A stretch of 62,754 nt of DNA, counting the filler, from Chrysochromulina tobinii (taxonomy: Eukaryota): NCBI GenBank assembly GCA_001275005.1. It is 8 parts of 8 records of this genome, joined end to end, with 100 filler letters (N's around TTAATTAATTAA, not from the genome) between each part and the next. Parts side by side here need not be neighbours in the genome. Positions count along the whole stretch, not along the records: positions 47,791 to 50,729 come from JWZX01001238.1; 7 more parts are not named here. One strand, written 5' to 3'. The notes under the pieces were generated by a model. That model worked only from the letters and a program-made list of their open reading frames with translations, ran no database searches and had not been told where the DNA came from. The position numbers and the translations under genes were made by a program. Below are positions 7,614 through 62,733 of the stretch, piece by piece; the first letter of the stretch is position 1, and each line of letters starts with the position of its first letter.

Positions 7614-8780
7614 TCAAGGCTTGAGTTTGGCCGCGCTCAGGGGGCGGGAGGAGGGGCCAAGGTCGGCCCGCTGGTGTGACGAACCCGAGCGCCCGTGTGA
7701 CGAACCCGAGCGCCGCGCCGAGCGCGGGTCGCTCCTTGTGGGGAAGTCGTACGAGAAGCTCCGGTAGCCGGCGCCGGGACGGCGCATCGGCTCGCGAGCC
7801 GCCTCCAAAGAGTTGCCACCGCGCCGCGTATTGGACGCGAAGCCAGAGGACGGCTGATAGTCCACGCCGCGCCCATCGCCCCTGCCGCCCCCTAATGTTA
7901 AGTACGCGGGCGTCTCGTACGTGCCTGGCCCGGGCGTGCCCGTATCGGCGCTCGGGAAGCCCGGCTCGTCGCCGCCAAAGATGTCATCTCTCCAAGGCGC
8001 TGCCCCACTCCAGAAATGAGCTTGCCCATCCAGGAGGTAGCGCGGGGCACTGTAGCCCGCCTGCTCCCTCACATCGGCGCCGCCAAACTTGCCGCCGTTG
8101 ACAGGGTGCCACGGACTCCACTCGCCGCCGCCGCTGCTGCCACCGTCCGTGGGCAGCGCGCGCACGCGCACGCCGAGTAGCCGTTGGTCCGCGTGGGGCA
8201 GCTGGATGTGGCACCGGAAGGGCCCCATCGCGACGCAGTCGGGGTGGTGCGCGTCGATGACGACGTCGCCGTGCCGAGTCTTGAGCTCGAGCTCGTACGC
8301 AGGCGATCCGGTGAGCTTGATGATGATGTCATCGTACTGCACGTGCACAAAGCGCACCCGCGGCATCACATATGCTGAGCGGACCCGAGCGTCCTCTTGG
8401 ATGGGTTTGAAAGAGGACGCCCCTCCAATGCTGCTGCTCGAATGCAAGGGTGTGGGGATGCGGGCCATGGTGTTGCCATACTCACGAGCACCGCGCGGAG
8501 CATCGCGCGGCACCACGCGCGGTGCAGTCTCCACAGACCCAGCCGGTTGCAAATCGCCCTGCGTCATGTAAAGTGGATGGTAGATGACCTTGTGCGGCCC
8601 ACGCGGAGGAAAAGTGTAGACTCGGAGCGGATCCGAAGGCAGCACGACGTGCTGAGCACGGACCTGAGGGGAGCCGTCCACGTAGTACACCGGCACTGGA
8701 AGCCCATGACATTCCAACATCTGCGTTTTGTTGGACGGCCGCCCCGCGAGTTCCCGTTCAGAATCAAAACAAGGGTCCAC
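7614..8780 (-). CDS. Hypothetical protein with FN3-like segment and one SHIPPO/STPG-like (PGPGxY) motif
   Basis: 388-aa ORF containing YELELK...GVRVRAL...GEWSPW (FN3-like) and TPGPGTYETP...SSGFASNTRR. Start uncertain (GTG 8780 or ATG 8720). Confidence 0.55.
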   Translation of the reverse strand: MDPCFDSERELAGRPSNKTQMLECHGLPVPVYYVDGSPQVRAQHVVLPSDPLRVYTFPPRGPHKVIYHPLYMTQGDLQPAGSVETAPRVVPRDAPRGAREYGNTMARIPTPLHSSSSIGGASSFKPIQEDARVRSAYVMPRVRFVHVQYDDIIIKLTGSPAYELELKTRHGDVVIDAHHPDCVAMGPFRCHIQLPHADQRLLGVRVRALPTDGGSSGGGEWSPWHPVNGGKFGGADVREQAGYSAPRYLLDGQAHFWSGAAPWRDDIFGGDEPGFPSADTGTPGPGTYETPAYLTLGGGRGDGRGVDYQPSSGFASNTRRGGNSLEAAREPMRRPGAGYRSFSYDFPTRSDPRSARRSGSSHGRSGSSHQRADLGPSSRPLSAAKLKP

Positions 8781-13930: not shown

Positions 13931-16076
13931 TCACGAGAGCACCATCGGCATCACCGACATCGGCATCGCACGGCTGAGCGATTTGTGCGCACCGCCGGAC
14001 TTCACGAGAAGCGGCGAGCTTGGCATGCCCTCGGCGCGGCTCAAGCGCTCGAGGAAGGCATCAGCCGGCATCGCGCCGAAGCTCTCGGACAGTTTGAGGC
14101 TGCCGAGCGAGCTAGTCAAGCCGCCAAAGCTGGGTCCCTTGGCAGGAGTGGGCGCGCTCATCCCCGAGCGCTGCGCCTCGATCGCCCGGATCGCCTGCTC
14201 CGCTGCACTCAGACCGTCCTCCTCGCCCTCATGAAGCGACGAGTCTAGCGACTTGGCCTTCAGGTCCGAGGGCTTCCAGGAGGCCTTGCTGAACAGTCCG
14301 TCGTCACGCAGCGCTGCCCCTTTGGTCGCACCCTTGGCATCGGCGGCGGTAGCCTGCTGGGCGTAGGCCTTGGCATTAAAGGCGGCGGGCGCGGCGATCG
14401 CGTCGGTGGCACCGAGCAGCAGCTGCATCGCCTGCGGCGTGGCGCGCTCAGGCTCTTCATCGGCGACGGAGGGCTTGTCAGACGTCGGCTCACCAAGCAT
14501 CACATCGACAAGCATCACATCGAGGCTCGAACGCTCGGGCGACGCCACCTCTGCATCGAGAGCTGCGGCCTTTGGCTTTGCCTTGGGCTTGAGAGCGTCG
14601 CGCGTGGACAAGGGCACGGTCTGTTCCGTCTGCTCCTCCGTGGCAGCCGGCGGTCCCTTGGGCGCTGCAGGCTTCTTGCCGCCGAGGAGGGCCATCGCCT
14701 TGAGAGCCTCGGTCGCGTCCGCAGGTCCGCGCGATGAGCGGCGCTCCGAGTGGTCGCCGCTAGTACGGGCCGACTCGCGACCCCCGCGAACCGAGTGCGG
14801 CGCTTTGGCGAGTCGGAGGCTCTCCTGTTCCTTGAGGATCCTCTCCTCCTTGGCGAGCCTCTCCTCCTCAACCTTCTTCCAGTGCTCCTCGCGCTTGGCC
14901 TTGCGAGCCTCGAGCGCAGCGCTCTTGGACTCGGCCTCCTGGTCCAGCTGGCCGCGCAGCCGCACCGGCCGCCGGTCGACTGCCTGCAAGGTCTTGTTTG
15001 CCTTGGGCGAGTGTTTCTTGGGGAGGTGCTTGAGCTCCTTGCGCAGCTCGTCAATCTCGGCATCCTTGGCATCGAGCATCTCGCGCAGCTCGTCGAGCTG
15101 CTCGCGTGTCATCTCGTGCTCCTCTCGCGAGTGCGCGAGCGCCTCCTCGGCCGCTGCCAATTTTGTCTCTGCCTCGGCCACGCGCTGTTCGGCACGCTTG
15201 GTGATCCACTCGGCTTTGCGCATCGCCTCGGCCGCGGTCGTCTCAGCTGCCTCTTTGGCCACGAGGGCATCTGCCGCCTCCGCCTCCGCCTTGGCACGCA
15301 TCTCGTCGAGGCCCTTGAGGCACCGGCGCCGCCTTTGCACCCGCCACCGCCCCCAGCCCGAGCGCTTTGCTCCATTCGGCCGCCTTTTCGTCAAGAGGAT
15401 CCACGGGCTTCGGTTTCGTCTTCTTGGGCTGTGGCGTGGCCGTGGCGTACATCGAGCCCGGACCGGCGTCGAAGCGGCCCTTGGTTGTGGGCGCAAAACC
15501 GGGAGACGGTTTCGATGCGTTCTTGCCGCCGAAGGAGTCGTAGTCGTTCGGATTGAATGTGGGCGCGGGCGTCGCCTTGGCCGCGCTGCTGTACATGGAG
15601 CCCGGCCCGCTGTCGAAGCGGCCCTTGCTCGTGGGCGCAAAGGCGGACGAGGGCTTTTCTCTGCCTGCGCTCGAGGGGCCGCCCCCACCTAGCGGGTTGC
15701 TGCTCTCGGGCGAGCCACCGGCCTTTGGCGAAGCGAGGGCACCCTTGGGCGACTTGAGCGCGGCACCGACCGGACGCTGGCGCGGTGCGGAGGCTGCACG
15801 TGGCTTCGGGGTGGTGACGTCCAGCCCACTGCCCGTGGTGGATGTAGGCACGTCAGGCTGTTGCTTCTGTTCCGTCTGCACCGGCGCCGGGCGAGCCCTG
15901 GGGGCTGGCGACGAGCGCGCTGGGCGCGCGGGGCTCTTGCCACGGGCGACGGGCACGTCGGCATCGGCAGCTTTGACTGGTGCGGGGGGTGCAATTTTGC
16001 GCTCGATATCATGGCCGATGCCTCCGAAGCTGGAGAAGCGGTCCTTCTTCTTGTGCTGGGCCGGCGCGAAAGACAT
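13931..16076 (-). CDS. SHIPPO-like repeat plus coiled-coil protein (probably cytoskeletal/flagellar), one frameshift near 15311
   Basis: ORF 15243-16076 (two SxxFAPTxKGRFDxGPGSMY repeats) joins the coiled-coil frame of ORF 13931-15688 (LDEMRAKAEAE...ELRKELK) if one G is removed at CAAGGGCCTC. Confidence 0.6.
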
Positions 16077-16318
16077 TGCGAGAAGAGGACGGACGGCGAG
16101 TCGGGCTTTAGCGAGTCCGCGTCCGCGGCGTTGATTCCAAATTTACAACGCGCTCGGTTTCCTGTTTTCTTCGAAAAGGGGAGTTCACGCCCACCCCCGT
16201 GGGACTACGGTGTTGTGTGTGTCTCCCTTGATATCGTTGTGTGACATGACCATCTCACCTCGTACCGGTAATTATGACGAAATTGTAACACGAAAGGGTG
16301 CGTACGTCGCCGAGAAAA

Positions 16319-41600: not shown

Positions 41601-44490
41601 CTCGGCGGCCCTCTGGCCGTTGATGTGCCATGCGAGGACGCCGCCGGCGAGCGTCATGCGGATCCGATCACCCGCATCGAAAGAGGGCAGGCCGTTCTGA
41701 ACCAAGGAGTCCTTGTGCCGTATGGCACCGTCCGCTCTGTAGCTCCAGCTGTCGGCGTCTCCACCTGATGAGGGAGGCGATCGGATGTCATCAGAGGTCA
41801 TCAGAGGTCATCAGCTGTCGGCGTCTCCACCTGGAGATCGCGACAGGGCGTCAGATGCCATCAGAGGTCATCAGAAGTCGTCAGAGGTCATCAGAGGCCA
41901 TCAGAGGCCATCAGAGGCCATCAGAGGTCATCAGAGGCCATCAGAGGTCATCAGAGGTCATCAGGGGCGTCAACACCTAGGGAGCGGGACAGGGCGTCCT
42001 TGCGCGGCAGCGCTGCGCCGATGAAGCAGCGACTCGGATCGGTGCACTGCTGCACGACGAGCTCGACCATCGGCGAGATCGCACCGAGCAGCGCCCGCCC
42101 GGTGGCCTCGAGCCTCACGCTCCGCTTGTTGTGGCTGAGTTTGGCGCTTGCGACCTTGAGCTCCGTCGCAAAACTCAGCGCGCCTTGCTGCTGCACCGCT
42201 TGCTGCAGCGCCGTAGCCTGCTGCGCCGCCGCTTGCTGCGCTGCCACTTGCTGCCCTACCACTTGCTGCGCCGCCGCCTGCTGCGCCGCCTCCTGCTGCG
42301 CCTGCGCCTCTGACTGCGCGATCGCGAGGACCAGTGCGGTGGCCTCCTCCTCCGCCTCGTCGACGTCCTCGCTCACGACCCCGGGGGCATAGGTGTTCCC
42401 AGCCACGCGGAAGCGTAACGGCTTCTCCCAACGGCCAAACATCGAGCCGTCGAGTACGTTCCCAGTCGCGTGCCCGCTCACCTGATGAGGGAGGCAATCA
42501 GACGTCATCCGGTTGATGAGGGAGGCAATCATCGGCCGCTCACTCACCATGTGATCGAGTTTGAGTGTGGCCATCAGTGGTCATCGGTGGTCATCAGTGG
42601 TCATCAGTGGTGATCAGTGGTCATCAGTGGTCATCAGTGGTCATCAGTGGCCATCGGCCACTCACCGTGTCATCGAGCTTGAGCGCAGTCTCGTTGCCCT
42701 CAAACTGGCACAAATCGACGACTACGCTGCCGCCGCCTCGGGTGACGATCACCTCCTTGTTATGCGCAAACGTACATTCCACTGCCTCGAAGGCGCATGC
42801 CCGGTCGACGCGCACGGCGCAGATCGAATGCTGCACGAGGGAGAGAGATCGAATGCCATCAAGGGTCATCAGTGGTCCTCAGAGGTCATCAGAGGTGCTG
42901 CATGAGGGAGAGAGATCGAATGCCATCAAGGGTCATCAGTGGTCCTCAGAGGTCATCAGTGGTGCTGCACGAGGGAGAGAGATCGAATGCCATCAAGGGT
43001 CATCAGTGGTCAACTGTGGTCAACAGTAGTCATCAGCGGTCATGAGTGGTCCTCAGTGGTCCTCAGTGGCACTCACCTGCATGCTGCACCCGTGCAGAGA
43101 GAGTGAGGTGCTTTCCTTCATGTCGATGGCCGTACTCGCGAGCCCTCCCTTTCGTTTGGCCGCCACTTGGCAGCGCACCAGTTTCCACCGACCCCTCTGC
43201 ACACGGATTGCGGGCTCCATGTAGTGCCCCAAACTCAACCCCTCGATGACGCCCACAATCTGAAACAATCTCGACTCCTCGATTGCGCGCGCGACGAGCC
43301 CCGCCTCGCCCCTTGCCATACAATGCGACCCCGCCTCGCCGTGACGGCCTCCATTCGCCAGCTCCTCCTCTGCCTGCGTGCGTGCACCGCCTCCGACTGC
43401 AAGCACCGACTTGCCCAATTTGGAACCAGTATGCCGCCCCCCTGTGTGCCGCCCCCCCCTCGCCGGTGGCTCGTCCCATTTATAAAAGTTGGCCTTGTGC
43501 GAAGATCCCGAGCCGCGGCTCGAGCCGCCATCGAGGCGCAGCTGGCCTACAAGCTGCACGCCCTCCTCGGCATAAAGGTGGATGGGCTGTGCAATCAGGA
43601 GGTCGCCGTACAAGGTCGAGCCGGCCCGCAACCGCACGCGCTCCAAGTGAGGCAAGTCCGCAGGCACACGACTCAGGACCGCCGCGGCACTCCGCTCGTC
43701 CACCTGCAGGCAACGAGGGAGGCAATCAGCATGCAACGAGGGAGGCAATTAGCATGCAACGAGGGAGGCAATCCGCATGCAATGAGGAAGGACCATCCGC
43801 GGCAATCAGCATGCAATGAGGGAGGGCCATCCGCGGCCATCCGCGGCAATCTCGCTCGTTCACCTCGAGCCACAATCTCAAACTCGAGGATGAAGGGGGC
43901 AATCAGAGGCACTCAGATGCAATCTCGCTCATTCACCTCGAGCCACGATCTCGCCCAGATCTCGAGCGCGGGCGAGTCCGTGGGCTGTAGCAGGCGGTGG
44001 AACGTCCGGTTCACCGCCATCAGGCGCCGCAACGTCAGCCGGCATTCGAGGTGGCTCAGGATCTCGTACCTGATGAGGGAGGCAATCAGATGTCATTCGA
44101 GGCCATCAGAAAGGTCATCGAGGTGGCTCAGGATCTCGTACCTGATGAAAAGGGGGCAGTCAGAGGCGGCACTCAGATGCAATCATTCTCGCACGTGACT
44201 TCGACGTTCTCAAACTCGAGGACCAAAGGGGCAATCAGAGGTACTCAGAGGCAAGCTCGCACGTGACGTCGACGTTCTCAAAGTCGATGTGTGCCGTCGT
44301 GTCGACCCGATCGTCGTCGACGTTCTCAAACTCGAGGTGTCGCTCCAAATTAGGCAACTCGTTGTGATGATCCAAGTGAGGCAACTCGCAAACTCCAAAC
44401 TTGTGCCTCGCGAGCGCGCCCGACACGGCGTCGAGGCCGTGGAGGCCAGACTTGCGAGTGTAGTACCCGTGCGACACCTTGGTGGACTCT

Positions 44491-44704: not shown

Positions 44705-44965
44705 NNNNNNNNNNNNNNNNNNNNNNNNNNNNNNNNNNNNNNNNNNNNTTAATTAATTAANNNNNNNNNNNNNNNNNNNNNNNNNNNNNNNNNNNNNNNN
44801 NNNNTGCCCCTAAACTGCCCCGCGCGCGAGGTAGTGTTTCGTGTGAAAGTGGACCCCCAAAAGGGCGCACTCTGGTGCCTTCACCACCTAGAGCAGCTCA
44901 TAGAAAAGTCGTGGATAGCTATTCGAAAGTTATCGGATAGCTATTCCTGACTTCTAAAACCCGAC

Positions 44966-46306
44966 ATGTGCAGGCTCTCGACTTTCCTGACGGAGGACGT
45001 CCTGGAGAACGCCCTCGCGTTCGCCGACGTGCCGACGCTGCGCGCGCTCAAGGGCGTGAGCCTCGCGTGGCGTGCGCGGGCACGGCGCGTCCTTTGCGCG
45101 CGGCTGTGCGCTCGAGTCGGCCTGCCGCTCGCGAGCAACCTCGGCAACGTGACGACGCTCGACCTCTCGGGCAGCCGCGCCGCAGGCCGCCTCTTCGCCG
45201 ACGCGGCCGACGCGGCGTGCGGGCTGCCCAACCTGGCAAGGGTGACGGGGCTGGGCGGCTTTGAGGTGGACGTGGCCGCGCTAAGGAGCGTGGCGTCATC
45301 TGGTGAAGACTCGTACCCGATGGCGGGGATGCGCGGGTGCATCCGTGGCGTAGGCGAGGCGCCGATGGAGGTGCCGCCGATGGAGGTGCTGCTCGCCGCG
45401 TGCGCGCTGCGCCACGGCAAGGCGCGCGTTCCGGCGAACGCATTCCGCGGTGACAGGTCCATTACGTCGATCACGCTCCCAACCGGCCTCACCAGCATCG
45501 GGGAGTGCGCCTTCCATGGCTGCTCCTCGTTGACAACGATCGAGCTTCCCGCCGGCCTCACGAGCATCGGTGAGTTCGCCTTCTCTCGCTGCTCCTCGAT
45601 GACATCGATCGAGCTGCCCATCAGCCTCGCGAACCTTGGCCGGTACGCCTTCCGCGACTGCTCCTCGTTGACGTTGATGGAGCTGCCTGCCAGCCTCACG
45701 AGCATCGGTGAGCATGCCTTCGAGGACTGCTCCTCGTTGACAACGATCGCGCTGCCCGCCGGCCTCACGAGCATCGGTGAGTTCGCCTTCCGTGCCTGCT
45801 CCTCGATGACATCGATCAAGCTGCCCCTTGGCCTCACGAGCATCGATAAGAGCACCTTCCGTGGCTGCTCCTCGTTGACAACGATCGAGCTGCCCGCCGG
45901 CCTCACGAGCATCGGTGAGTTCGCCTTCTATCGCTGCTCCTCGATGACATCGATCGAGCTGCCCATCGGCCTCGCGAGCCTTGGCGGGTACGCCTTCCGC
46001 AACTGCTCCTCGTTGACGTTGATGGAGCTGCCTGCCAGCCTCACGAGCATCGGTGAGTATGCCTTCGAGGACTGCTCCTCGATGACGTCGATCGCGTTTC
46101 CCGCTGGCCTCACAAGCCTCGGTGTGGGCGCCTTCGATGGCTGTGACTCGTTGACGTCCATCACGCTGCCCGACAGCCTTACGTGGGAAGGCCTTAAAGG
46201 ATTATATGAGAAGGCCTTACGTGGATGCCCATGCACGTCGGAATGGCGACAAGTTGGTAGCTCTACCGATAGTGATAGTGATGGCGAGTTGTTTAGCGAG
46301 TTGTGA
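44966..46306 (+). CDS. F-box-like plus BspA/TpLRR (LRR_5) protein
   Basis: N-terminal FLTEDVLENALAFADVPTLRALKGVSLAWRARA (F-box-like), followed by about 10 LPxGLTSIGExAFxxCSSL/M repeats. Confidence 0.88.
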   Translation: MCRLSTFLTEDVLENALAFADVPTLRALKGVSLAWRARARRVLCARLCARVGLPLASNLGNVTTLDLSGSRAAGRLFADAADAACGLPNLARVTGLGGFEVDVAALRSVASSGEDSYPMAGMRGCIRGVGEAPMEVPPMEVLLAACALRHGKARVPANAFRGDRSITSITLPTGLTSIGECAFHGCSSLTTIELPAGLTSIGEFAFSRCSSMTSIELPISLANLGRYAFRDCSSLTLMELPASLTSIGEHAFEDCSSLTTIALPAGLTSIGEFAFRACSSMTSIKLPLGLTSIDKSTFRGCSSLTTIELPAGLTSIGEFAFYRCSSMTSIELPIGLASLGGYAFRNCSSLTLMELPASLTSIGEYAFEDCSSMTSIAFPAGLTSLGVGAFDGCDSLTSITLPDSLTWEGLKGLYEKALRGCPCTSEWRQVGSSTDSDSDGELFSEL

Positions 46307-47790: not shown

Positions 47791-50729
47791 CCTCGAAGAA
47801 CTCCTTCGTGTGAGCAGGGGTGAGGTGGGAGACGGCCTCGGTGGCCATGACCCTGAGACCGATGCCGCCTGTGGCCACACGGTCGCACCCGGCGACGTCG
47901 ATCCAGAGTCGCTGCAAGATGATGTCGGCGTTGCCCATGGCGAGGGGGACGTCGGTGATGTAGCTAGACGAGTTATCGGGGCTTGACGCGAGGGTGGATC
48001 CCCAGGCGCCGGCCTTGTTGTACGAGCCATGAATTGACGGCTTGGTCAACCCCCACGTGGGCGCCCGGATCTATCACTTCCCTCTCCAGGAAAGTAGCAG
48101 GCGCCGGCTCCGCGGTTCAACACTTCAACTGGGAGTGCGCCCGGACTGGCCTCGCCCACTTCCCCTGCGCCATCCAATCCCTCACTGGCACCTGCCGTGG
48201 GGCAGCCGGCGGCTGCCTCACATGCAAGGCCCAGGCGGCGCTCACCACTGGCGCCACGCCGGTACCCGTCGGGATCCTTGCCAAGATCAAGGCCGCCGCC
48301 GACGCCGATACAGCCCGTCGGATCGTTTAGCGCGTCACTCGTACCGCTCTCGCTGAGCGACCGCGAGCCGCCACCGCCGCCAACCGCTCCGCCGCCCCCC
48401 TCTTCATCATCTCATCCGCCCATCCCATCCTCCATCCTCATCTCCACCGCCGCCGCTCTCGAGCACGGCGCCGCCCATCCCGCCGCCGCCGCAGCAGACG
48501 CGCCCACCGCCGACCTGGCATGGTCTTCTGCTCTCGTCGCGTTCGCCGGCCCTGGACATCACGATGATCTCGCCTCCAACCTCCGCGCTCGAGGCGTTCA
48601 CGTCCACGCCGTCGACACTAAAATCGGCGGCCATGAGCACGATGTCACCATCCCGGCCGTCGCCGACGCCCTCGTCTCGGCCACTGCCTCAGGGCAGTAC
48701 GACTTCATCTTCATTGCCACTCCGTGCTCCTCATACTCAGTCGCCCACAGTCCGCAGCTGCGTTCCCGCCGGACACCCATGGGTCTCCCCAACGTGCCCC
48801 AGCCGTGGACCCGGTACCTCGAGAAGCACAACCTCATCGGCTCTTTTACCGCCAGCCTCGTCGCCGCCGCCGAGGCAGCCGGTACGCCCTGGGCTATCGA
48901 GAACCCTGCCGATCGCGGCGACGCCTCTTCACCCGCTTACTGGAAGCTCCACTGCGATCACGCGCCACTCTGGCTACATCCGCACGTTTCCACAGCCCTC
49001 AGCGCCGCGCACGCCGTCCTGCGCACCTTCGCACAGTGCTCGTTCGAATCCCCATTCCAGAAGTGGACCACAGTCGCCCATCCACCATCCATTTCTGCCG
49101 AGTTCAGCTTCCTAGATCTGCACGCGTGCCAGCACGGCCGCTCGCTCCACCTCGCTCGGGCTCACGGCCTCGCTCCAGACGGCAGCAGTCTCTCTGCCGC
49201 CTCTGCCGCCTACCCCCCTGCGCTGAACCGCACGCTCGCTCGCGCGATCGCCCATTCCATCACCCGCGCCGCACAGCCCCACGTCCCCATCCTCGCCGCC
49301 AATACTGGCGGCCGCATCGCCGACGGGCACCAGCTCGGCGTCGACGTCGCCGCCGCCTGCGAAGACGCAAGGCACGACCCGCCCAGATGGGCGTCTCTGC
49401 GCAACCGCCTGCCGGCCTCCGTCGCATCCCTCAGAGCCGAGCCCTTTCCGGGCGACCTCTTCCATCAACACATCTCCAGCAAACCGCCCCTCGCCCGTGC
49501 CGCCCGGCTGCGCGCCCAGCGCGAAGCTGAGCAGGATGCACTCTCTGCGAGCAGCACCGCCGCCGACCGCCTCCGCCGCATCTCGGCCGGGCCGATCCAC
49601 GTCTCACAGCTGTTCCTCGACGACGTGTACGACGGCATCATCGCCCCGTGGATGCTGCACGCTGACGCCGCCTTCGCCGCGATCGCCGCTGGCGGAGCCG
49701 TCGATCGCCCTCCCACCGTCACCATCGGTCAAGAGCAAATGCAGCCGTGGGCCCGAGGCATAGTATGGGACTGCCTAGCTCCATCCGCCTGCGTCCCCGT
49801 CCAGCGGTCAACCCGCTCCACCATCTTCCCAGGGAAGCGGCAGCTCGACCGCGCCGCGCTCAGGCGCGTCGCTACCGAGCTGCACTGGCACGATGTCGAC
49901 ATCATCGCCCAGGCCGGCGAAGGCGGCGTCGAGAGCCGCAGCCACTGCCCGCTTGACACCGTTCTCGCCTTCCATCATCAGAGCCTCGTCGCCGAGCACC
50001 CTTCCGCTGAGAAGGTCGTCCTCTCCGACCTTGCTGAGGAATGGGTCTCTGCACCTGTTCGACATCTACCCTACGCCCCGTGCCGCATCTTACCTCGCGG
50101 CGTCATCATGCAAGAGCGTGCCCGCCTCGTCCCCGCCACCGACGGCGGCGAACCCACCGCTGAGGCGTACCTCAAGCCGAGGATCACCACCGACAGCAGC
50201 CACGGCGGCGACGCCGCCGTCAACGCCGGCGTTGAGTCGCACGAGCGAGGCACCAACCTGCCCCGCGCGCAGGATCACGCCAGGGGCCTCGCCATCTGCG
50301 ATACCGCAGGCGGTGATCATCTCCGAGCAGCGTCGTACGTCGTCGACGCCGAGTCCGCCTACAGGTTCTGCCCGGTGCAGCTTGCCGACCTCTGGTCGCA
50401 ATGCTTCCTGTGGCACGACAGCCACGGCTCTGCCGGCATCTGCATCGACCGGCGCCTTGGATTCGGCGGCGCCTTCGCCCCCAACCGATTCCAGCGCATC
50501 TCCACGATGGTCGCCGCACACATCCAATCGCTCCATGCCGCCTTCGACGCGACGCAGCCGCTGCCGCCCGCCGCCACCCTTTGGGTCGCCGAGCGCACCG
50601 CCCGCCAACTCCGTGGCGAGCTACCGCCATGCGGCCATCTAGGCGTCGGCTCGCACCTCTCGCCTCGATACCTACAGGTATATGTCGACGACTTCAACGG
50701 CGCCGCGCTTCTCGACCCAGTTGAGATCC
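47791..50729 (+). mobile_element. Internal fragment of a DIRS/tyrosine-recombinase-type retrotransposon carrying a cytosine methyltransferase
   Basis: The whole contig has a C-rich strand bias. A gag-like ORF end (stop at 48330) overlaps a long DNMT-RT ORF. RNase H, recombinase and termini are not in the contig, so the class rests on RT style only. Confidence 0.75.
48197..50729 (+). CDS. C5-cytosine DNA methyltransferase / reverse transcriptase fusion, 3'-partial
   Basis: DNMT at about 48530-49260: FAGPG (I), ATPCSSYS (IV), WAIENP (VI), QCSF..FQKWT (VIII), AAYPPAL (X). RT at about 50170-50729: KPRITTDSS, VVDAESAYRFCPV, RLGFGGAFAPNRFQR, YVDD (50681-50692). Confidence 0.88.
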
Positions 50730-50829: not shown

Positions 50830-53800
50830 CTCGCGTACCTCTGGCCAAACCACTTTAGCAACACCACCCAGCCCACCTTCCTATGCGGCATCGACAACAC
50901 CGCCACGGGATGGTACGCCAACGGTTCGTCCACCTGCACCGACACGTGCAACTATGCCTCCGACGGCGACTGCGACGACGGCGGCCCCGGCTCGGAGTAC
51001 GACTTCTTCAAAGATCTAATTGGTCTCCTGGGGGCTGATTGCCCCCTCGGTTCCGACTGCACCGACTGCGGCCCGCGCGTGAACCTTCTATGCCCTCTTG
51101 ATAACGGGGTGCCAGTCTGCGGAGGGTTCTCGTATTTGCCCTCAAGCCTCGTGACGGGCTACAGTGCGCTGGCGTTCGGGAACCCCGACAACTCAATTTA
51201 CGTGGGCGGCTTCCAGAACGTCACCAACGCCGGCACCGTCGCGGCTCTGCGGGCGTCCATCGTCCGGAGAGCAAACTGGGTGTTCAGCAACGTGGTCACC
51301 GGCCCATTCCAACTGATAACCTCTTTTGAAATCTACTCCGACCCGCCCTCCCCGCCGCCTTCTCCGCCCTCGCCGCCGCCCCGCCCGCCTTCGCCGCCCT
51401 CGCTGCCGCCGCCCCCTCCAAGACCGCGGTCGCCGCCCTCGCCCCCCCGCCTGCTGGCCCACCATGGGGGTCTCTGCGCACGGTCTGCACCAACGAGTGC
51501 AGCTCTGCCTCCGATGGCGCTTGCGACGACGGCGGCCCCGGCTCCGAGTTTACCTTGTGCGGTTTCGGCAATGATTGCGCCGACTGCGGCCCTCGCACGG
51601 CCCCCGCGTGCGATGCGGGCTTCTCGTGCGGCATGTGCCTGATGATCGAGACCGCGTGCCCGAGCGCGACCACCATCACCCGCCTGGGCCGATGCGCTAA
51701 TCCCAACCTTCCTGCCTGCACGAATACGTGCAACTTCGCCTCCGACAACAACTGCGACGATGGCGGTCCCGGCTCCGAGTTCTTCAACTGCGCTCGCGGC
51801 TCCGACTGCACCGACTGCGGCGTTCGCCAGCCCCCTCTCGACAACAGTAACTGCCGCGGCACCGGCCAATGTGGCACGAGTGCGAACCTCAACAACTGCG
51901 GCACCGACGACATCTACCGCTTGGCGTACCGAATGAGGCCCCCCCCACCGCCCCCGCCCCCGCCGCCCCCTCGGAAGCCGCCGCCTCAGTCGCCTTCGCC
52001 CGCGCCGCCGCCGTCCGGCTGCAGGAACAGCAATGCACTCAACTACCGCCCCTTTGCTGTCGTCGACGACGGCTCGTGCCTCATCGGCGGGTGCACCGAC
52101 TCGCGTTTCCCCCAGTACAACCCGTTGGCCACGTACGACAACGGGTTTGCCAACGGCGGCTGCGCACCGCCTGTCCCGGGCTGCACGAACTCCCGGGCCG
52201 TCAACTACCAGGCGAGCGCCACCTACTGCCCCACGGGCAACTGCTGCGTCATGGCCACACCCGTGTATGGCTGCATGAACTCGGACGCCCTCAACTACAA
52301 CCCGTCCGCCACGTACAGCAACGCGAGCGCCTATCCATGCGTTCCTCGCGTCCGGGGCTGCACGAACTCGGCGGCAGCCAACTACAACGCGCTCTACAAC
52401 ACGCTGCTCCCCGGCTCGTGCATCGTCTTCGGCTGCACGAACTCGTTGGCCTCCAACTACAACGCGCAGGCCACGAACTACGACGGCTCGTGCCCGGCAC
52501 ACCGAGGCTGCACCGACCCTGCTGCGGCCAACTACAACGCGGTCTACAACACGCAGCTGCCTGGCTCGTGCACGTACGGCGGCTGCAGGACTGTGGGCGA
52601 TCCCAACTACAACGCGCGGAACACCTTCGCCATCCCGGGCTCGTGCGCGGGCTCGGGCCGTCGCCTCGAGGAGGACGCTCCGGGTCGCCGCCTGCAGCAG
52701 GGTGCGGGGTGCTTGGACCCGACCGCGATCACGTATTCGTCCTCGGCCACGTCGCACGTTCAGTCCCTGTGCACGTACGCCATCCTTGGGTGCACGGATC
52801 CCAACGCGTTCAACTACCTGGCGTCGGCCACGGCGGGCAACTCCCAGGCCTCCTCGCCGTGCATCGCCCGTGTCACTGGCTGCATGGCGATCTCGGCGCT
52901 CAACTACAACAGCCTCGCCAACGTCAACAGCCCATCCTCGTGCTTGTACGCCGTCCAGGGCTGCGCGGACACTGCCGCCAGCAACTACATGGCCGCGGCC
53001 AACGTCAACGTCGCCTCGTTGTGCACGTACGTCATCAGCGGCTGCACGAGCCCTCTGGCCGCGAACTACAACCCCTCGGCCACCGTCGACAACGGCGGGT
53101 GCACGTGGCCAGTGCGTGGCTGCACTAACCCGACGGCCACGAACTACGTGGCCGGCGTCACTCCTGGGTTTGCCACCACGTGCCTTTACTCCGTCCCCGG
53201 CTGCACGTTTGCCGCGGCGTCCAACTACAACCCAAGCGCCACCGTCGACGACGGCAGCTGCGTCGTGAGGTCGCCGCCACCTAATCCACCCCCGCCCTCC
53301 CGGCCGCCCTCCCGGCCGCCCCCACCGCGCTCACCCCCCCGCCCGCCGCCCTCGCCGCCGCCGCCCTCCCCCTCCCCGCCCGCCCTCCCCCTCCCCGCCC
53401 GCCACCGCCGCCCTCCACGCCGCCATCGCCACCATCGCAGCCCGGAGCGCCCCAGATGGGCCTGGGGCTCTCGATGGCTCCCTCGGACTCGGGAGCCTCC
53501 ATCGCCATCGCCGTCTGCGTCACGATCAGCGTTGTGGCCATCATGTTCTTCGCGTGCCAGGTCTACACCCGAAAGTGGAGGAACGCGCGCGCTAAGACGG
53601 ACGTCACGTCCAAGGCGAGCAACGGTTCCACCGAGCTCCAGCAGATCCAGGTCAAGGAGAAGTACAAGCCCATCCCCATGGGCCAGATCTCGTACGGCGA
53701 CCAGCTGGGCACCGGCGCCTTTGGCGTCGTGTACAAGTGCACGTTCCAGGCGACCAAGTGCGCCATCAAGAAGCTGCACGCCAAGGACGAGAGCTCGGAG

Positions 53801-54862
53801 GCGCTCGCCAAGGCGCTCATGGACGAGTTCCACGTGATGAGCCAGCTCCGCCACCCGAACGTGCTGCTCACGCTCGGCATCGCCGAGGACGCGGTCGAGG
53901 GCACCAAGGGCATCGTCATGGAGCTCATGGAGGCCTCGCTCGCCGACGTGCTCAGCTCCGCCTCCTTCGAGCAGTACGCCACGTGGGCAGGCTCCTTCTT
54001 CTCCATCGCCTCGGACGTGGCCAACGGCATGGCCTACATCCACTTCAACAACATGCTCCACCGCGACCTCAAGCCGGGCAACGAGCCCCTCGACGCTCAG
54101 TGGGTGGCCAAGGTTGCCGACTTTGGCACCGTCTTCGACTCGTCCGGTAGCGCCATCTCGGAGAGCGGCGACATCCAGGGCACGCCGCCCTACATGGCGC
54201 CCGAGATCGTGAAGAGGCACGTGTACGACAAGCCGGTGGACGTGTGGGCCTTTGGGTGCATGCTCGCGCACATGGGCACGAAGCGTCCCCCGTACTCGTG
54301 GCTCACGCACATCGAGACGCCCAAGCAGCTCCTCGACGTGGTCGCAAGCGGCGAGTACTCGCCGCTCGAGCTGCTCCTCGAGAGCACGACCACGTCGGAC
54401 TCTATCAAGGATCTCGCAAAGTCGTGCTGCCAGCCTGGCCCCATTGTGCGGCCGACCTTCGAACAGATCTCGCAGAAGGTCAGCGAGGCCGTCAACGTCG
54501 CATTTGGCGCGGCGACTCCCCGCGGATCTAGCAATGTCGACCCGCGCCCCGTGGCGCGCATCAAGAACAAGCGCCCACTGCGCACCTCTATCATCGCGGC
54601 CCCCGGAGCGCCGGAACGTGACAGTACGGCGTCTTCGGATTCCCTCACATCGACAATGGACCAGTCGTACCGCGAGAAGTTCAAGAACCGCTCCAAGTCT
54701 TCGCTCGAGAAGTCGTACCGCGTCAACACGGACGCGCCGGCGTCGCCGGGCGGCGAGGCGTCCGCGCCGCCGCCGCCCGCCGAGTCGAACAATTCGCTGT
54801 TCCAGACTTTTTCGGATACGCTCCTCGCCACCTTCACGCCCGGCAAGGGGCTCAAAGACTAG
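50830..54862 (+). CDS. Single-pass receptor-like TKL kinase with a Cys-repeat ectodomain, 5'-partial; frameshifts near 51445 and 53380-53400
   Basis: Three CDDGGPGSE modules, Pro linkers, 15 GCxxxxAxNY..C repeats, TM IAIAVCVTISVVAIMFFAC, and kinase motifs GTGAFGVVYK, AIKK, HRDLKPGN, DFG, YMAPE, DVWAFG. Confidence 0.88.
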
Positions 54863-58317: not shown

Positions 58318-58515
58318 ATCCACGGCGGCGGCACGCGAGGTTGGTCGTAGAGACCAAGAAAGGCTCCATGCTGCCGAGGAGGGCGAATGCGCGCTGTGAA
58401 TGAGGAATTAAAGTTGGGCGTGCTGTCTCGGAACGCCTAAGTGCCGTTTGAGATCGCTTCTTTCGGGAGCTGCGGGCTCGGGTCGTGTTAACGTTCACAC
58501 CCCTCGGCAAAAGTT
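58318..58515. promoter_or_regulatory. Probable bidirectional promoter between the divergent FHA and TOP2 genes
   Basis: About 200-bp head-to-head spacing. Similar divergent pairs lie at 16077-16318 and 8781-8878. Positional inference only. Confidence 0.4.
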
Positions 58516-61500
58516 ATGTCGGCAATCCGACGGACTACCGTGGCCACCTCCGCGACCCTTAGCCGTTCCTTGCCACCACTCATCGCACGACGTTTTGTCT
58601 CGCGCACGGAGTCAAAGATGACTGTGAGCGAACTGAAGGAGGTGCTGGGCAAGCTCGGTTTGCCGACGACAGGCAAGAAGGCCGAGCTGGTGGCACGGCA
58701 TGCGGAGGCGTTGGCGCTGGCGGCGACAGGGCCCGAACCCGCAAAGCGCATCCACACGGCCGCACCCGCAGTGATCGCCTCCTCATCCTCGGCGGACGCG
58801 TCCAAGTTCGAACGGCTCACGCCGGTCGAGCACGTCCTACGCCGTCCGGGCATGTACATCGGCTCGACTTCGGTGCAGATCGAGCCGCTGTGGGTTCACG
58901 ACGCGGCCGAGGATCGGATCGTGTGGCGCGATGCACAGTACATCCCAGGGCTCTATAAGATTTTTGACGAGATCCTCGTCAACGCGCTCGACAACGTGCA
59001 GCGCGACCCGGCGGGCACCAACCGCATTGACGTGGCCATCGAGCCGCGCTCAGGGCGAACGAGCGTGTGGAATAACGGGCGCGGCATCCCGGTGCGCCGG
59101 CACGAGATCGAGGGCGTGTGGCTCCCCGAGATGCTCCTAGGCTCTCTCTTCACCGGTTCCAACTTTGACGACGAAGCCAAGCGTACCGTTGGGGGCAGGC
59201 ATGGTTTCGGTGCGAAGCTGACGAACCTCTTCTCAACGGCCTTCGAGGTGCAGACGGCGGACGCGGCGGCGGGCGTGCTGTACACCCAGCGCTGGGCGGC
59301 CAATATGAGCGAGCGCACCGAGCCAACCATCGAGCCGCTGCCGGCCACGATGCGAGGAGCGGACTTCACCAAGATCGTCTTCACACCCGACCTGACGAAA
59401 TTTGGTGTGCACGCACTACCGGAGGACATGCTTGCTCTCTTCCGACGGCGCGTGTACGATGCGGCTGCGACCGCCGCACCCGCGTGCGTCTCGCTCGACG
59501 GCCGAACGCTCCAAGTGAGCGGGCTGCAGCAGCTCGCACAGCTGTATACGAGCGGCCCGCACGCCTTCGCACGGGTGTCCGAGCGATGGCACGTGGGGGC
59601 GTGCCTCTCGCCTACCGGTGCTTTCCAAGCGCTCAGCTTCGTCAATGGCGTCGCCACGCCGCGTGCGGGCACGCACGTGACGCACGTATGCACGCCACTG
59701 CTGCAGGCGCTCGCTCCGGCGCTCAGCCGAGCGCTCAAGCTGCCCGCGGGTGAGGAGCTCACGACGGCGCGCCTCAAGCCGCATCTGATGCTCTTCGTCG
59801 ATTGCAAAGTGGATAACCCAGAGTTCGACTCGCAGTCGAAGGAAGCGCTCACGAGCCACCCTAGCAGCTTCGGGGGGCTGTGCGCCCTACCCGACGCCTT
59901 CATCAAGCGCGTGGCGGCCCTCGAGGGGCTTCGGGCCGCCGTTGCCGACGCGTTTGAACGACGCGCCACCAAAGAGCTCGCGCGCCGTACTGGGCCAGCG
60001 ACCTCGCTGCTCGAGGTGCCAAAGCTCGAGGACGCGGAGCTGGCGGGCGGACCAAGCGCATCCGAGTGCACTCTCATTGTAACCGAGGGCGATTCCGCCA
60101 AGGCGTTGGCGGTGGCGGGGCTTGAGGTCGTCGGGCGGGAGCGTTACGGCGTCTTCCCCCTACGCGGCAAGCCACTCAACGTGCGTGAGATCTCGGCCAG
60201 AAAGGTGGGCGACAACGAGGAGCTCACCGGCCTGATGCGCGCCCTCGGCCTCACGCCAGGCGCGAGCTACGAACATCAGGTGGAGGCACTCAAGGCACTA
60301 TCCTCCTCGATCTCCTCGATCTCCTCGATCTCGCCGGCCGCCGAGGGTGGCGCGAACGCCGAGGGTGGCGCGAGCGCCGAGGGTGGCGCCAGCGCCTCGC
60401 CCATGCCTTCAGGCAAAGCCAGGGCTCGTGGCACGGGCCTGCGGTACGGGCGCCTCATGCTGATGGCGGATCAGGATACCGATGGCTCGCACATCAAGGG
60501 CCTCGTCATTTCGATGCTTCATCACTTTTGGCCCGAGTTGCTGCGTGCCGACTTTGTGCAAGAGTTCCAGACGCCGCTGCTCAAGGCGCGGCGTATCTCG
60601 GACGGCCAGGTACTCGCGTTCTTCTCGTTGCCCGAGTACGAAGCCTGGCACACGCAGCTCAGCGCGCCCGAGCAACGCCACTGGCGTGCCAAGTACTACA
60701 AGGGGCTGGGCACCTCGACCGCGCAGGAGGCGCGTGAGTACTTCGGGGCCTTGGGCTCGCATCGGCTTCAGCTCGAGTGGGCGAGCGCGGCAGATGACGA
60801 CCTGATCGACATGGCCTTCTCGAAGAAGCGAGCGGCGGATCGGCGCGAGTGGATGCTGCACGCTGCACGTCGCATGCATGCTGCAGCCAACGCGGCGGCA
60901 ACACCTGCGCAACTCGTGGACAGCAACGAGCCGCCGCCGCCGCCGCCGCCGCCGCAGCCGCCGCCGCAGCAGGGAGTTGAGCCGCCGTCGCCGCCGAAAG
61001 CGCAGCAAGGGCGCCGTGCGATCGGGGAGCGACGCACATACGCGGCATTCGTCAACGAGGAGCTCGTCCAGTTTTCTCTCGCGGACGTGCGCCGCTCGCT
61101 CCCATCCGCCATTGATGGCCTCAAGCCTTCCCAGCGCAAGGTGCTCTACGCGTGCTTTGCCAAGCGTCTGCTGCCCTCCGCCGCGGAGATGAAGGTGGCG
61201 CAGCTCGCGGGCTTCTGTGCCGAGGTGACCCATTATCACCACGGCGAGGCTTCGATGCATGCGACCATCACGAACATGGCGCAGGGCTTTGTGGGCTCGA
61301 ACAACGTGCCGCTACTAGAAGCGTGTGGCCAGTTTGGCACGCGCGCCGCCGGTGGGAGTGACGCGGCCTCGGCTCGGTACATCTTCACACGCCTCACGCC
61401 GCTTGCTCCGCTCCTCTTCCCAGCGGCCGACGCACCGATCCTCAAGTACTGCGTCGAGGACGGACATTCTGTGGAGCCAATCCACTACGTGCCTGTGCTG

Positions 61501-62733
61501 CCCACGCTGCTGCTCAACGGCGCCAGCGGCATTGGCACCGGATGGAGCACGCAGTGCTGGAGCTATCACCCACTTGAGCTGCTCGACAACGTGCTCGCGC
61601 TCGCGAACGGCCGGCCGATGGCACCGATGGTGCCGTGGGCGGCCGGCTTCCGCGGCGAGATTGTAGTCCAACCGCCCGCCAATGCGGGGGTAGGTGCGCG
61701 GATGGGTGCGGGGGTGAGTGCGGGGGTGGGTGCGGGGCATAAGGAGATGGCCGGCCTTCCCTCCACCTTTCTCTCGCGTGGCGTGGTGCGGCTTAGTGCG
61801 GACGGCCTCGAGATCACCGAGCTGCCGCTGGGCAGGTGGACGAGCGTGTACAAGAGCTGGCTACTCAAGCAGATGGCGGAGGGGAAGGCGCTGTGGACGG
61901 GCTTCAGCGAGCGCCATACTGAGCGCACCGTGTGCTTCGCGCTGCACCACACGCGCGATCAGCTCGCGCAGCTGGCGGCGGTGGAGGAGCAGGGGATGCT
62001 TGCGAGCCAGCTGCAGCTCGAGGCGAGCCACTCACTCAGCAACGCGCATGCATTCGACGCCCACGGCGAGCTCCGTCACTTCCGCTCGCCCCACGAGCTC
62101 ATCGAGATGCATGCCGAGGCGCGGCTGGCGGCGTACGCCAAGCGCAAGGCCCACGATTTAGCGCACCTCGCGGCGGAGCTCGAGCTTCTGGACGCGCGCG
62201 CTCGGTTTGTGGGGATGGCTGTGCGCGACGAGCTGCCCCTCTTGAGGGGCGCGCCCACACAGATGCTCCTCGACGCGCTGCGGTCGGCGGGCTTCAAGCC
62301 CGGTTTAGGCGCGACTTCCTTGGCTGACCTTCCTAATTTGGGAGCATTAGACGCGACTTCCTTGGCCGGTGGCAGCGGCGAGGGCGGCGGCGGTGGCGGC
62401 GAGGGCGGCGGCGAGGGTGGCGGCGAGGGCAACGTCGCGCCTACGAGCCGTGCGTATGATTACCTGCTGCGTCTGCCATTGCTCTCCCTCACCGAGGAGC
62501 GAGTGGCGAAGCTCGAGGGCGAGATCGAGCGCAAGCGTGCCCAGGCGACCGAGCTGCAGCACACGTCGGAGCTCGCGCTATGGTCTCGCGAGCTCGAGGC
62601 GCTGCGCATGCCGCTGCAGGCGCACCTCGAGGCGGTGGCCTCGCACGCGACGCCCGCTGCCGCCGAGAGCCGCGCTGACGCGAGTTCGCCCAAGAAGTCG
62701 ACGAGGGCACGCCGGCGGACAGGCAAGACCTGA
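58516..62733 (+). CDS. TOP2: DNA topoisomerase II (eukaryotic type IIA) with N-terminal transit-like peptide and SAP domain
   Basis: EHVLRRPGMYIGS, KIFDEILVNA, GGRHGFGAKL; TOPRIM TEGDSA, PLRGK, MADQDTDGSHIKG; YYKGLGTS, DGLKPSQRK; catalytic ASARYIFT. Confidence 0.97.
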   Translation: MSAIRRTTVATSATLSRSLPPLIARRFVSRTESKMTVSELKEVLGKLGLPTTGKKAELVARHAEALALAATGPEPAKRIHTAAPAVIASSSSADASKFERLTPVEHVLRRPGMYIGSTSVQIEPLWVHDAAEDRIVWRDAQYIPGLYKIFDEILVNALDNVQRDPAGTNRIDVAIEPRSGRTSVWNNGRGIPVRRHEIEGVWLPEMLLGSLFTGSNFDDEAKRTVGGRHGFGAKLTNLFSTAFEVQTADAAAGVLYTQRWAANMSERTEPTIEPLPATMRGADFTKIVFTPDLTKFGVHALPEDMLALFRRRVYDAAATAAPACVSLDGRTLQVSGLQQLAQLYTSGPHAFARVSERWHVGACLSPTGAFQALSFVNGVATPRAGTHVTHVCTPLLQALAPALSRALKLPAGEELTTARLKPHLMLFVDCKVDNPEFDSQSKEALTSHPSSFGGLCALPDAFIKRVAALEGLRAAVADAFERRATKELARRTGPATSLLEVPKLEDAELAGGPSASECTLIVTEGDSAKALAVAGLEVVGRERYGVFPLRGKPLNVREISARKVGDNEELTGLMRALGLTPGASYEHQVEALKALSSSISSISSISPAAEGGANAEGGASAEGGASASPMPSGKARARGTGLRYGRLMLMADQDTDGSHIKGLVISMLHHFWPELLRADFVQEFQTPLLKARRISDGQVLAFFSLPEYEAWHTQLSAPEQRHWRAKYYKGLGTSTAQEAREYFGALGSHRLQLEWASAADDDLIDMAFSKKRAADRREWMLHAARRMHAAANAAATPAQLVDSNEPPPPPPPPQPPPQQGVEPPSPPKAQQGRRAIGERRTYAAFVNEELVQFSLADVRRSLPSAIDGLKPSQRKVLYACFAKRLLPSAAEMKVAQLAGFCAEVTHYHHGEASMHATITNMAQGFVGSNNVPLLEACGQFGTRAAGGSDAASARYIFTRLTPLAPLLFPAADAPILKYCVEDGHSVEPIHYVPVLPTLLLNGASGIGTGWSTQCWSYHPLELLDNVLALANGRPMAPMVPWAAGFRGEIVVQPPANAGVGARMGAGVSAGVGAGHKEMAGLPSTFLSRGVVRLSADGLEITELPLGRWTSVYKSWLLKQMAEGKALWTGFSERHTERTVCFALHHTRDQLAQLAAVEEQGMLASQLQLEASHSLSNAHAFDAHGELRHFRSPHELIEMHAEARLAAYAKRKAHDLAHLAAELELLDARARFVGMAVRDELPLLRGAPTQMLLDALRSAGFKPGLGATSLADLPNLGALDATSLAGGSGEGGGGGGEGGGEGGGEGNVAPTSRAYDYLLRLPLLSLTEERVAKLEGEIERKRAQATELQHTSELALWSRELEALRMPLQAHLEAVASHATPAAAESRADASSPKKSTRARRRTGKT

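Follow-up and report, generated by a model that had tools for sequence, protein, structure and literature searches.

A phage-like cytosine methyltransferase-fold domain ahead of the reverse transcriptase in a retrotransposon of a likely haptophyte host

We analysed a stretch of 62,754 nucleotides (the window) from the Chrysochromulina tobinii assembly GCA_001275005.1, in which a retroelement fragment fills one contig of 2939 bases (JWZX01001238.1, positions 47791-50729). The fragment carries a C5 cytosine methyltransferase (C5-MTase)-fold domain and a reverse transcriptase (RT) in one open frame, and its relatives support the view, put forward in an earlier note on this DNA, that it is a retroelement of DIRS order with a C5-MTase domain fused before RT. 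We consider it rather probable that the contig is part of a tyrosine recombinase (YR) retrotransposon of a Chrysochromulina-like host, whose Pol-borne C5-MTase domain methylates cytosines in the element's own new DNA. Since the window consists of eight contigs joined via N linkers, the genes beside the fragment are not its true neighbours.

Methylase and reverse transcriptase in one frame

On the plus strand, 877 codons run without a stop from 48098 up to the contig end (50729), a length reached by none of 500 dinucleotide shuffles of the contig (longest, 802). The uninterrupted frame reported earlier is thereby confirmed, but the start given for it, 48197, is a GTG within the overlap with the preceding open reading frame (ORF1). 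The first methionine is residue 228, downstream of motif IV. Relatives extend beyond the contig end, for example P0118 (98% identical over 650 aa; 1027 aa) and P0003 (88%; 1123 aa).

The C-terminus of ORF1 in the contig is the same as in locus L024 and in the 1216-codon ORF1 of locus L019 (6172-9819), and from its position and Cys cluster ORF1 appears to be gag-like. The first 253 bases of the contig match L019 9048-8796 reversed (97.6%), and the remainder matches L019 9529-11538 forward; in a contig of run X1 both ORF1 parts are co-linear, with about 486 bases between them. The 5' inversion with deletion probably marks a rearranged copy or a chimera that arose in assembly or amplification. 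Inversion junctions occur in several near-identical copies (L001, L005, L012, L014, and this contig at 48037-48044), as expected of whole-genome amplification chimeras.

The domain combines motifs I, IV (PC) and VI (E) with a C5-MTase fold. Of the motifs listed in the earlier note, these three are present, motif X is present only in a similar form, and the motif VIII-like element has K and T in place of the canonical Arg. Canonical motif VIII of C5-MTases reads Q-x-R-x-R, while in this family it is Q-K-(W/Y)-T. Among 90 non-redundant domains, 78 of YR type and 12 from Copia elements, K occurs 88 and T 85 times. The motif IV Cys and the motif VI Glu are invariant in all 90, and the F and G of motif I almost so. 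Only about 45 residues separate motif VIII from motif X. Furthermore, the four residues of a C...C-x-H-x4-H set, predicted to bind metal, are kept in 90, 90, 81 and 89 of the 90 domains. The unusual motif VIII, this extra Cys/His set, the absence of a Pfam match and a relative from Prorocentrum with EH for ENP would suit a non-catalytic nucleic-acid- or metal-binding module that retains the methylase fold; we regard this as very unlikely, given the invariant catalytic Cys and Glu, the nearly invariant F and G of motif I and a phage relative with the same PC, ENP and K-x-T pattern.

A Pfam search of the whole ORF gave zero matches. The match to DNA_methylase profiles anticipated in the earlier note fails for PF00145 and is obtained for PHROG 757 (DNA methyltransferase), which matches 23 of 28 aligned domains, and for the fold. 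In the ESM Atlas unnamed clusters come first, and the nearest named ones are viral or bacterial cytosine methylase clusters (0.88-0.89). When the domain model was compared with the PDB by Foldseek, C5-MTases were matched with E values from 4e-6 upwards and TM-scores that are low, about 0.4, and all 44 PDB matches listed are C5-MTase-family structures. Two short viral proteins fit the model better, one unnamed (TM 0.60) and one a putative cytosine methyltransferase of Tetraselmis virus 1 (TM 0.52). In a wide fold search, DNMT3B (Z 11.2; root mean square deviation (rmsd) 3.7 over 192 aligned residues) and M.HhaI (Z 11.0) tie. Pattern searches, which reach close relatives only, found no relatives in viral_contigs (three queries) or in prokaryote genomes, and from the available text of bioRxiv 10.1101/2023.12.21.572611 a link to GpC-specific phage methylases could not be drawn. 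By its profile match the methylase resembles small phage-type ENP/K-x-T enzymes rather than Dnmt3, and the module probably came from a phage or other virus.

The RT with its YVDD motif follows the methylase in the same frame, as described earlier. Pfam gave no match for RT members. A model of the RT of locus L003, 61% identical to this one, matches the RTs of murine leukaemia virus (MLV), cauliflower mosaic virus (CaMV) and Ty3 at E 5e-12 to 4e-11, and an MLV RT fragment with Z 17.2 (rmsd 3.1, 238 aligned). RT and RNase H share one Ty3/retrovirus-like pol ORF, with residues 73-698 of the L003 model matching the RTs of MLV, CaMV, Ty3 and human immunodeficiency virus. The search returned 97 relatives, mostly of 1100-1300 aa, which extend into an RNase H that has the motifs D-A-S, E, D and D; full-length Pol proteins stop just after it.

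Table 1 Coordinates of the features in the window and of the terminal repeats in locus L004.
Feature	Position	Strand	Remarks
Inverted ORF1 (gag-like) piece	47791..48044	-	~480 bases to forward part lost
ORF1 3' end, Cys/His cluster H..C..H.PC..C..C..C	48037..48330	+	stop TAG 48328-48330
pol frame (methylase-RT)	48098..50729	+	+1 relative to ORF1, cut by contig end
C5 cytosine methyltransferase-fold domain, phage phrog_757-like	48515..49279	+	PHROG 757 E 6.1e-7; model pLDDT 95
Motif I FAGPG	48542-48556	+	
Motif II D	48608-48622	+	
Motif IV TPCSSYS	48716-48739	+	catalytic Cys 48725-48727
Motif VI IENPA	48896-48910	+	Glu 48899-48901
C...C-x-H-x4-H set (C at QC, C205, H207, H212 of domain)	49037..49150	+	predicted metal site
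Motif VIII-like QKWTT	49058-49072	+	
Motif X-like AAYPPALN	49205-49228	+	
RT fingers and palm	49601..50729	+	thumb and RNase H beyond contig end
RT motif DAESAYR	50339-50365	+	
RT motif LGFGG	50456-50482	+	
RT motif YVDD	50681-50692	+	
L004 repeats A1, B1, A2, B2	5347-5620, 15164-15474, 15475-15748, 15916-16226 (in L004)		each pair 100% identical
Degenerate 10-base tandem repeats ATCAGAGG, GAGGCAAT	41770-43900		one type also in L004 flank
BspA-type leucine-rich repeat protein	44951-46306		read by eye
Receptor-like kinase	50830-54862		Cys-rich repeats (GCT..A.NY), proline linkers, transmembrane stretch, kinase domain; split over frames
Type II topoisomerase with N-terminal SAP domain	58492-62733		one uninterrupted 1413-codon frame

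Anatomy, expression and age of the element

Among 57 metagenome loci, 25 (L004 and L006 being the same locus) carry DNA methyltransferase (DNMT), RT and RNase H followed by a conserved recombinase-like ORF on one strand. One locus (L051) has the order RT-RNase H-DNMT before this ORF, three are 5'-cut with RT-RNase H and this ORF, and the rest are chimeric or lie on contigs that stop within about 1 kb of the pol end. The ORF after pol, known from relatives and outside the window, has R, K, R, W and Y invariant in 22 of 22 sequences and matches Cre weakly (E 0.035, probability 1.5%) with the catalytic R, W and Y in register; it is likely a tyrosine recombinase.

The insertion in L004 is complete, measures 10.9 kb and has split direct repeats of the Ngaro/PAT type, arranged A1, B1-A2, a 167-base spacer and B2. 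A long repeat pair lies 3' of the recombinase in 6 of the 15 loci examined; none occurs in the 1.9 kb after the recombinase of L022, and most other loci stop soon after it. Features of DIRS1-like elements were not found: long terminal inverted repeats are absent from 11 loci, and no Dam-like methylase follows RNase H in full-length Pol proteins. L019 and L024 (95% and 85% identical to this copy) have a common 5' end and different flanks, and their insertion sites are independent. In relatives the element order is A1, ORF1, DNMT-RT-RNase H, recombinase-like ORF, B1-A2-spacer-B2. The full copies called for in the earlier note have thus supplied the RNase H and the repeat termini, and for the tyrosine recombinase a likely candidate. 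Some members carry DUF4326 (PF14216) in frame before the DNMT (L004 8903-10000; P0091, P0348, P0300, P0380). The terminal overlaps of L009, L041 and L045 are what assembly of split repeats would yield anyway, and they were not accepted as evidence of circular intermediates.

The junction between ORF1 and pol varies: the two are in frame with one stop between at 7 loci (6 families), overlap at +1 in the subfamily of this copy, and lie 400-1000 bases apart in others, so neither readthrough nor frameshift is general. No spliced form was seen among RNA contigs, and 13 of 24 loci lack a Met ahead of motif I. ORF1 in this subfamily ends with GTT-TAG-C (window 48322-48333, L024 9824-9831). The pol frame of L024 has a stop just before the ORF1 end, so that ORF1 and pol could be fused only by splicing or by a +1 shift at the stop codon. 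At a similar place ORF1 is broken by a low-complexity, intron-like stretch in L019 (about 8350-8620) and L004 (about 7500-7700). RNA contigs cover the L019 element in 28, 25, 24 and 10 of 30 bins and leave the flank bin uncovered; since they cannot show strand or exclude DNA, transcription of the element is suggested.

Between the window copy and L019 and L024, dN/dS is 0.15 and 0.12 for the DNMT and 0.14 and 0.15 for the RT; the methylase is under purifying selection as strong as that on the RT. Of 231 pairs, 89 have dS 0.02-1; their medians of 0.34 and 0.31 are probably inflated by saturation. Near-identical copies (98-99%) are known, and the family spans 25-92% identity. Across 40 YR elements the DNMT and RT-RNase H distances agree (Spearman 0.73, and 0.81 in the main group), the pairs being non-independent. 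The wide identity range and the matching distances point to an old fusion of DNMT and RT. The youth ascribed to the element in the earlier note therefore fits this copy, with its near-identical relatives, but not the family.

Host and possible function of the methylase

The close named relatives are the Chrysochromulina proteins P0095 and P0097 and a 77-aa Phaeocystis antarctica member of the P0031 cluster, and none of them places the element in Symbiodiniaceae. The recombinase of L004 is 100% identical to P0095, a Chrysochromulina genome protein, and L001, 99% identical to the present copy, has the same assembly id as L004. The tetranucleotide profile of the contig correlates at 0.85-0.92 with six other contigs and at 0.73 with one short one. 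Where a habitat is named, the DNA of relatives comes from lake or shale-gas water, the others being mixed cultures or unspecified. The topoisomerase II frame of the window is uninterrupted over 1413 codons, unlike the exon-rich genes described for Symbiodinium, and a short repeat common to the window and the L004 flank is a weak further link. Of ten proteins encoded in the window, one was matched, by an entry that carries no taxon name. The host is likely a Chrysochromulina-like freshwater haptophyte.

It is in our judgement highly improbable that the contig stems from dinoflagellate contamination or from recent transfer of a SymbioDIRS-Dnmt3 element of the kind described in PMC5890265. It shares its repeat layout and DNMT-in-Pol design with those elements, a Prorocentrum protein has a related domain (E 5.8e-9; hhalign 97.8%), and the contig is short and unanchored. 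These points are opposed by the Chrysochromulina and Phaeocystis relatives and by the assembly id common to L001 and L004; moreover, the Prorocentrum protein has no match to this RT or recombinase, and SymbioDIRS-Dnmt3 was found via PF00145, which misses this family. The contamination that the earlier note asked to have checked is thus not supported. Of the two origins it proposed, we favour independent capture and think it less likely that a dinoflagellate element was transferred whole, because the methylase is phage-type by profile and the one dinoflagellate relative found shares the methylase only, not the RT or recombinase.

If the element methylates itself, RT and RNase H would turn its RNA into cDNA, switching template between the A and B repeats as in the Ngaro/PAT model. 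The methylase tethered in Pol would use S-adenosylmethionine and the Cys/Glu pair to set 5-methylcytosine (5mC) on the element's cDNA before insertion, and the recombinase would insert the methylated cDNA. The mark may make the new copy resemble a CG-methylated host genome or shield it from host surveillance. We infer all steps beyond the anatomy. SymbioDIRS-Dnmt3 domains methylate CG de novo in yeast, and methylation of their cDNA before insertion has been proposed (PMC5890265); gene-body 5mC is present in haptophytes (PMC12344493).

Several results weigh against self-methylation by such an enzyme and element. PF00145 gives 0 matches for this methylase and matches 1 of 28 relatives, at E 0.25; NCBIfam gives no match, and a PDB sequence search of the methylase yields chance matches only. 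The canonical motif VIII arginines are absent from the domain, and in the wide fold search short-chain dehydrogenases (SDR) are close behind the C5-MTases (Z 10.2). The post-pol ORF has no match in Pfam, PHROG, NCBIfam or PDB, and its match to Cre is weak. Dinucleotide ratios reveal no CpG depletion (elements 1.05-1.31, host 1.10-1.18), and the transition rate at CG (0.031) is near those at CC (0.026) and CT (0.027), with CA at 0.014 (9 of 12 pairs pooled). SymbioDIRS-Dnmt3 is likewise described without CG loss (PMC5890265). For the self-methylation claimed in the earlier note, CpG and other deamination signals were sought and none was seen. Single-stranded DNA is not a usual C5-MTase substrate. 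The cDNA of DIRS-1 is linear and mostly single-stranded (PMC7192593), which leaves room for RNA or a single strand as the substrate.

An active C5-MTase might act on the RNA template, the RNA:DNA hybrid or single-stranded cDNA, with a mark that protects or packages the intermediate. The form of DIRS-1 cDNA, the non-canonical motif VIII with its short distance to motif X and DNA without a deamination signal are consistent with this, and de Mendoza et al. raise RNA methylation for SymbioLINE-Dnmt (PMC5890265). We nevertheless think it unlikely, since the nearest profile is a phage DNA methyltransferase family and Copia elements keep the same domain and residues. Copia elements make double-stranded cDNA. 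Action in trans on host chromatin or the insertion site instead of the element's own cDNA, for example by marking flanks or by competing with the host DNMT5, would explain why no element-specific methylation footprint is seen and why the domain is tolerated at several positions of unrelated polyproteins. It strikes us as quite unlikely, for in every full-length carrier examined the domain belongs to a polyprotein that also bears RT and would bring it into the same particle as the cDNA. The reading we prefer is still that the element methylates its own cytosines.

Spread of the module and comparison with known systems

The domain matches 949 clusters at 50% identity, of which the best 150 were considered. 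We classified 344 domain-bearing proteins: in 207 this family's RT follows the domain, 18 belong to the Copia type, a single one has the order reversed, and 118 show neither. In metagenomic Ty1/Copia polyproteins the DNMT lies between integrase and RT (P0307, P0309, P0321, P0333, P0343, P0267, P0248, P0389), and in P0288 it is C-terminal and, judged by eye, follows an RNase H-like end. In the tree, ten of the Copia domains group as one clade (100/99) and two are placed elsewhere; a single origin of the 12 Copia-borne domains is not rejected (approximately unbiased test, p 0.053) in a tree of 61 rows that left out the phage and Prorocentrum rows. Judged from these sequences, the module likely moved between YR and Copia retrotransposons. 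The deep tree and the root are not resolved, so we claim no donor and no order of transfer.

A polyprotein of Prorocentrum cordatum (P0400, 1244-1445) holds a degraded DNMT of this type, in which EH replaces ENP, and shows no detectable likeness to the RT or recombinase of this family. Its RNase H-like and recombinase-like ends were read by eye. More tentatively, a minimal, phage-derived, metal-binding and Pfam-invisible module could have spread through haptophyte retrotransposons and beyond, writing its own mark. With the same reserve, the module might have reached several deep lineages of YR elements and a dinoflagellate element and been captured by Copia one to three times; the mark might perhaps be non-CG or lie on single-stranded cDNA. 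If this were true, DNA methylation in major phytoplankton would have a hidden source carried by transposons.

Comparisons with published systems are limited to the accessible parts of the papers. Like SymbioDIRS-Dnmt3 (PMC5890265), the element, a likely YR retrotransposon, has A-coding-B-A-B repeats and a separate ORF for the likely recombinase, joins the DNMT to RT and RNase H within the Pol ORF, and combines purifying selection with no CG depletion. SymbioDIRS-Dnmt3 has two domain orders, which are echoed by L051 (282-5441), a member of the present family with the order RT-RNase H-DNMT. The element differs from SymbioDIRS-Dnmt3 in its likely haptophyte host (haptophytes receive 0 mentions in the accessible text of PMC5890265), in a methylase that PF00145 misses and that matches phage phrog_757 (a separation by profile), in the added Cys/His set, and in the presence of the same module in Copia elements.

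The phage family phrog_757, represented by gp46 of Klebsiella phage KA2-1, is likewise a small C5-MTase (about 230-250 aa) with PPC, ENP and K-x-T, and gp46 is about 26% identical to the domain over motifs II-VI. The phage gene, however, stands alone and lacks the H-x4-H pair, and the match spans only the first half of the domain. We found no paper on the activity of phrog_757.

With the Ngaro/PAT YR retrotransposons (PMC3266345, PMC3783388, PMC6681497) the element shares the A1-B1-A2-B2 repeats, the order gag (gag-like here), RT/RNase H, YR (likely here) and an RT fold near Ty3/Gypsy and retroviruses. Ngaro elements have no methylase, and in DIRS1-like and PAT elements RNase H is followed by a Dam-type adenine methylase, whereas here a cytosine methylase precedes the RT; the 167-base spacer between A2 and B2 in L004 is a further difference from Ngaro/PAT. 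Our trees contain this family only.

Capture of DNMTs by other retrotransposon classes is known from KnitGypsy-Dnmt3 and SymbioLINE-Dnmt (PMC5890265) and from EpiLTRs (bioRxiv 10.64898/2026.05.21.726589), the last with one DNMT module common to unrelated backbones, as here. Their DNMTs belong to Dnmt3, an orphan clade or a DNMT4 sister, and none is reported, in the accessible text, from haptophytes or from between a Copia integrase and RT. For Dnmt3 in 'LTR Copia and DIRS', PMC12344493 cites the 2018 paper (PMC5890265), where the element described is a Gypsy. In Emiliania, a single uncertain element, DIRS or PAT, is listed by PMC3266345. In the open literature searched, neither a haptophyte DNMT-bearing retrotransposon nor a phage-type DNMT in Copia was found.

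Gene callers begin some copies past the catalytic Cys (P0118, P0005), and the Pfam models used in surveys miss both DNMT and RT here, so the methylase repertoire of algae is likely undercounted. With about 250 residues and a confident model, the domain suits the yeast assay used for SymbioDIRS-Dnmt3, which makes the role of transposon methylases directly testable. Collectively, haptophytes are now added to the dinoflagellates, a charophyte, Cymbomonas and Euglena in which DNMT capture by retrotransposons has been described. The design is known (PMC5890265; bioRxiv 10.64898/2026.05.21.726589); new are its presence in haptophytes, the phage-type enzyme and Copia as a carrier.

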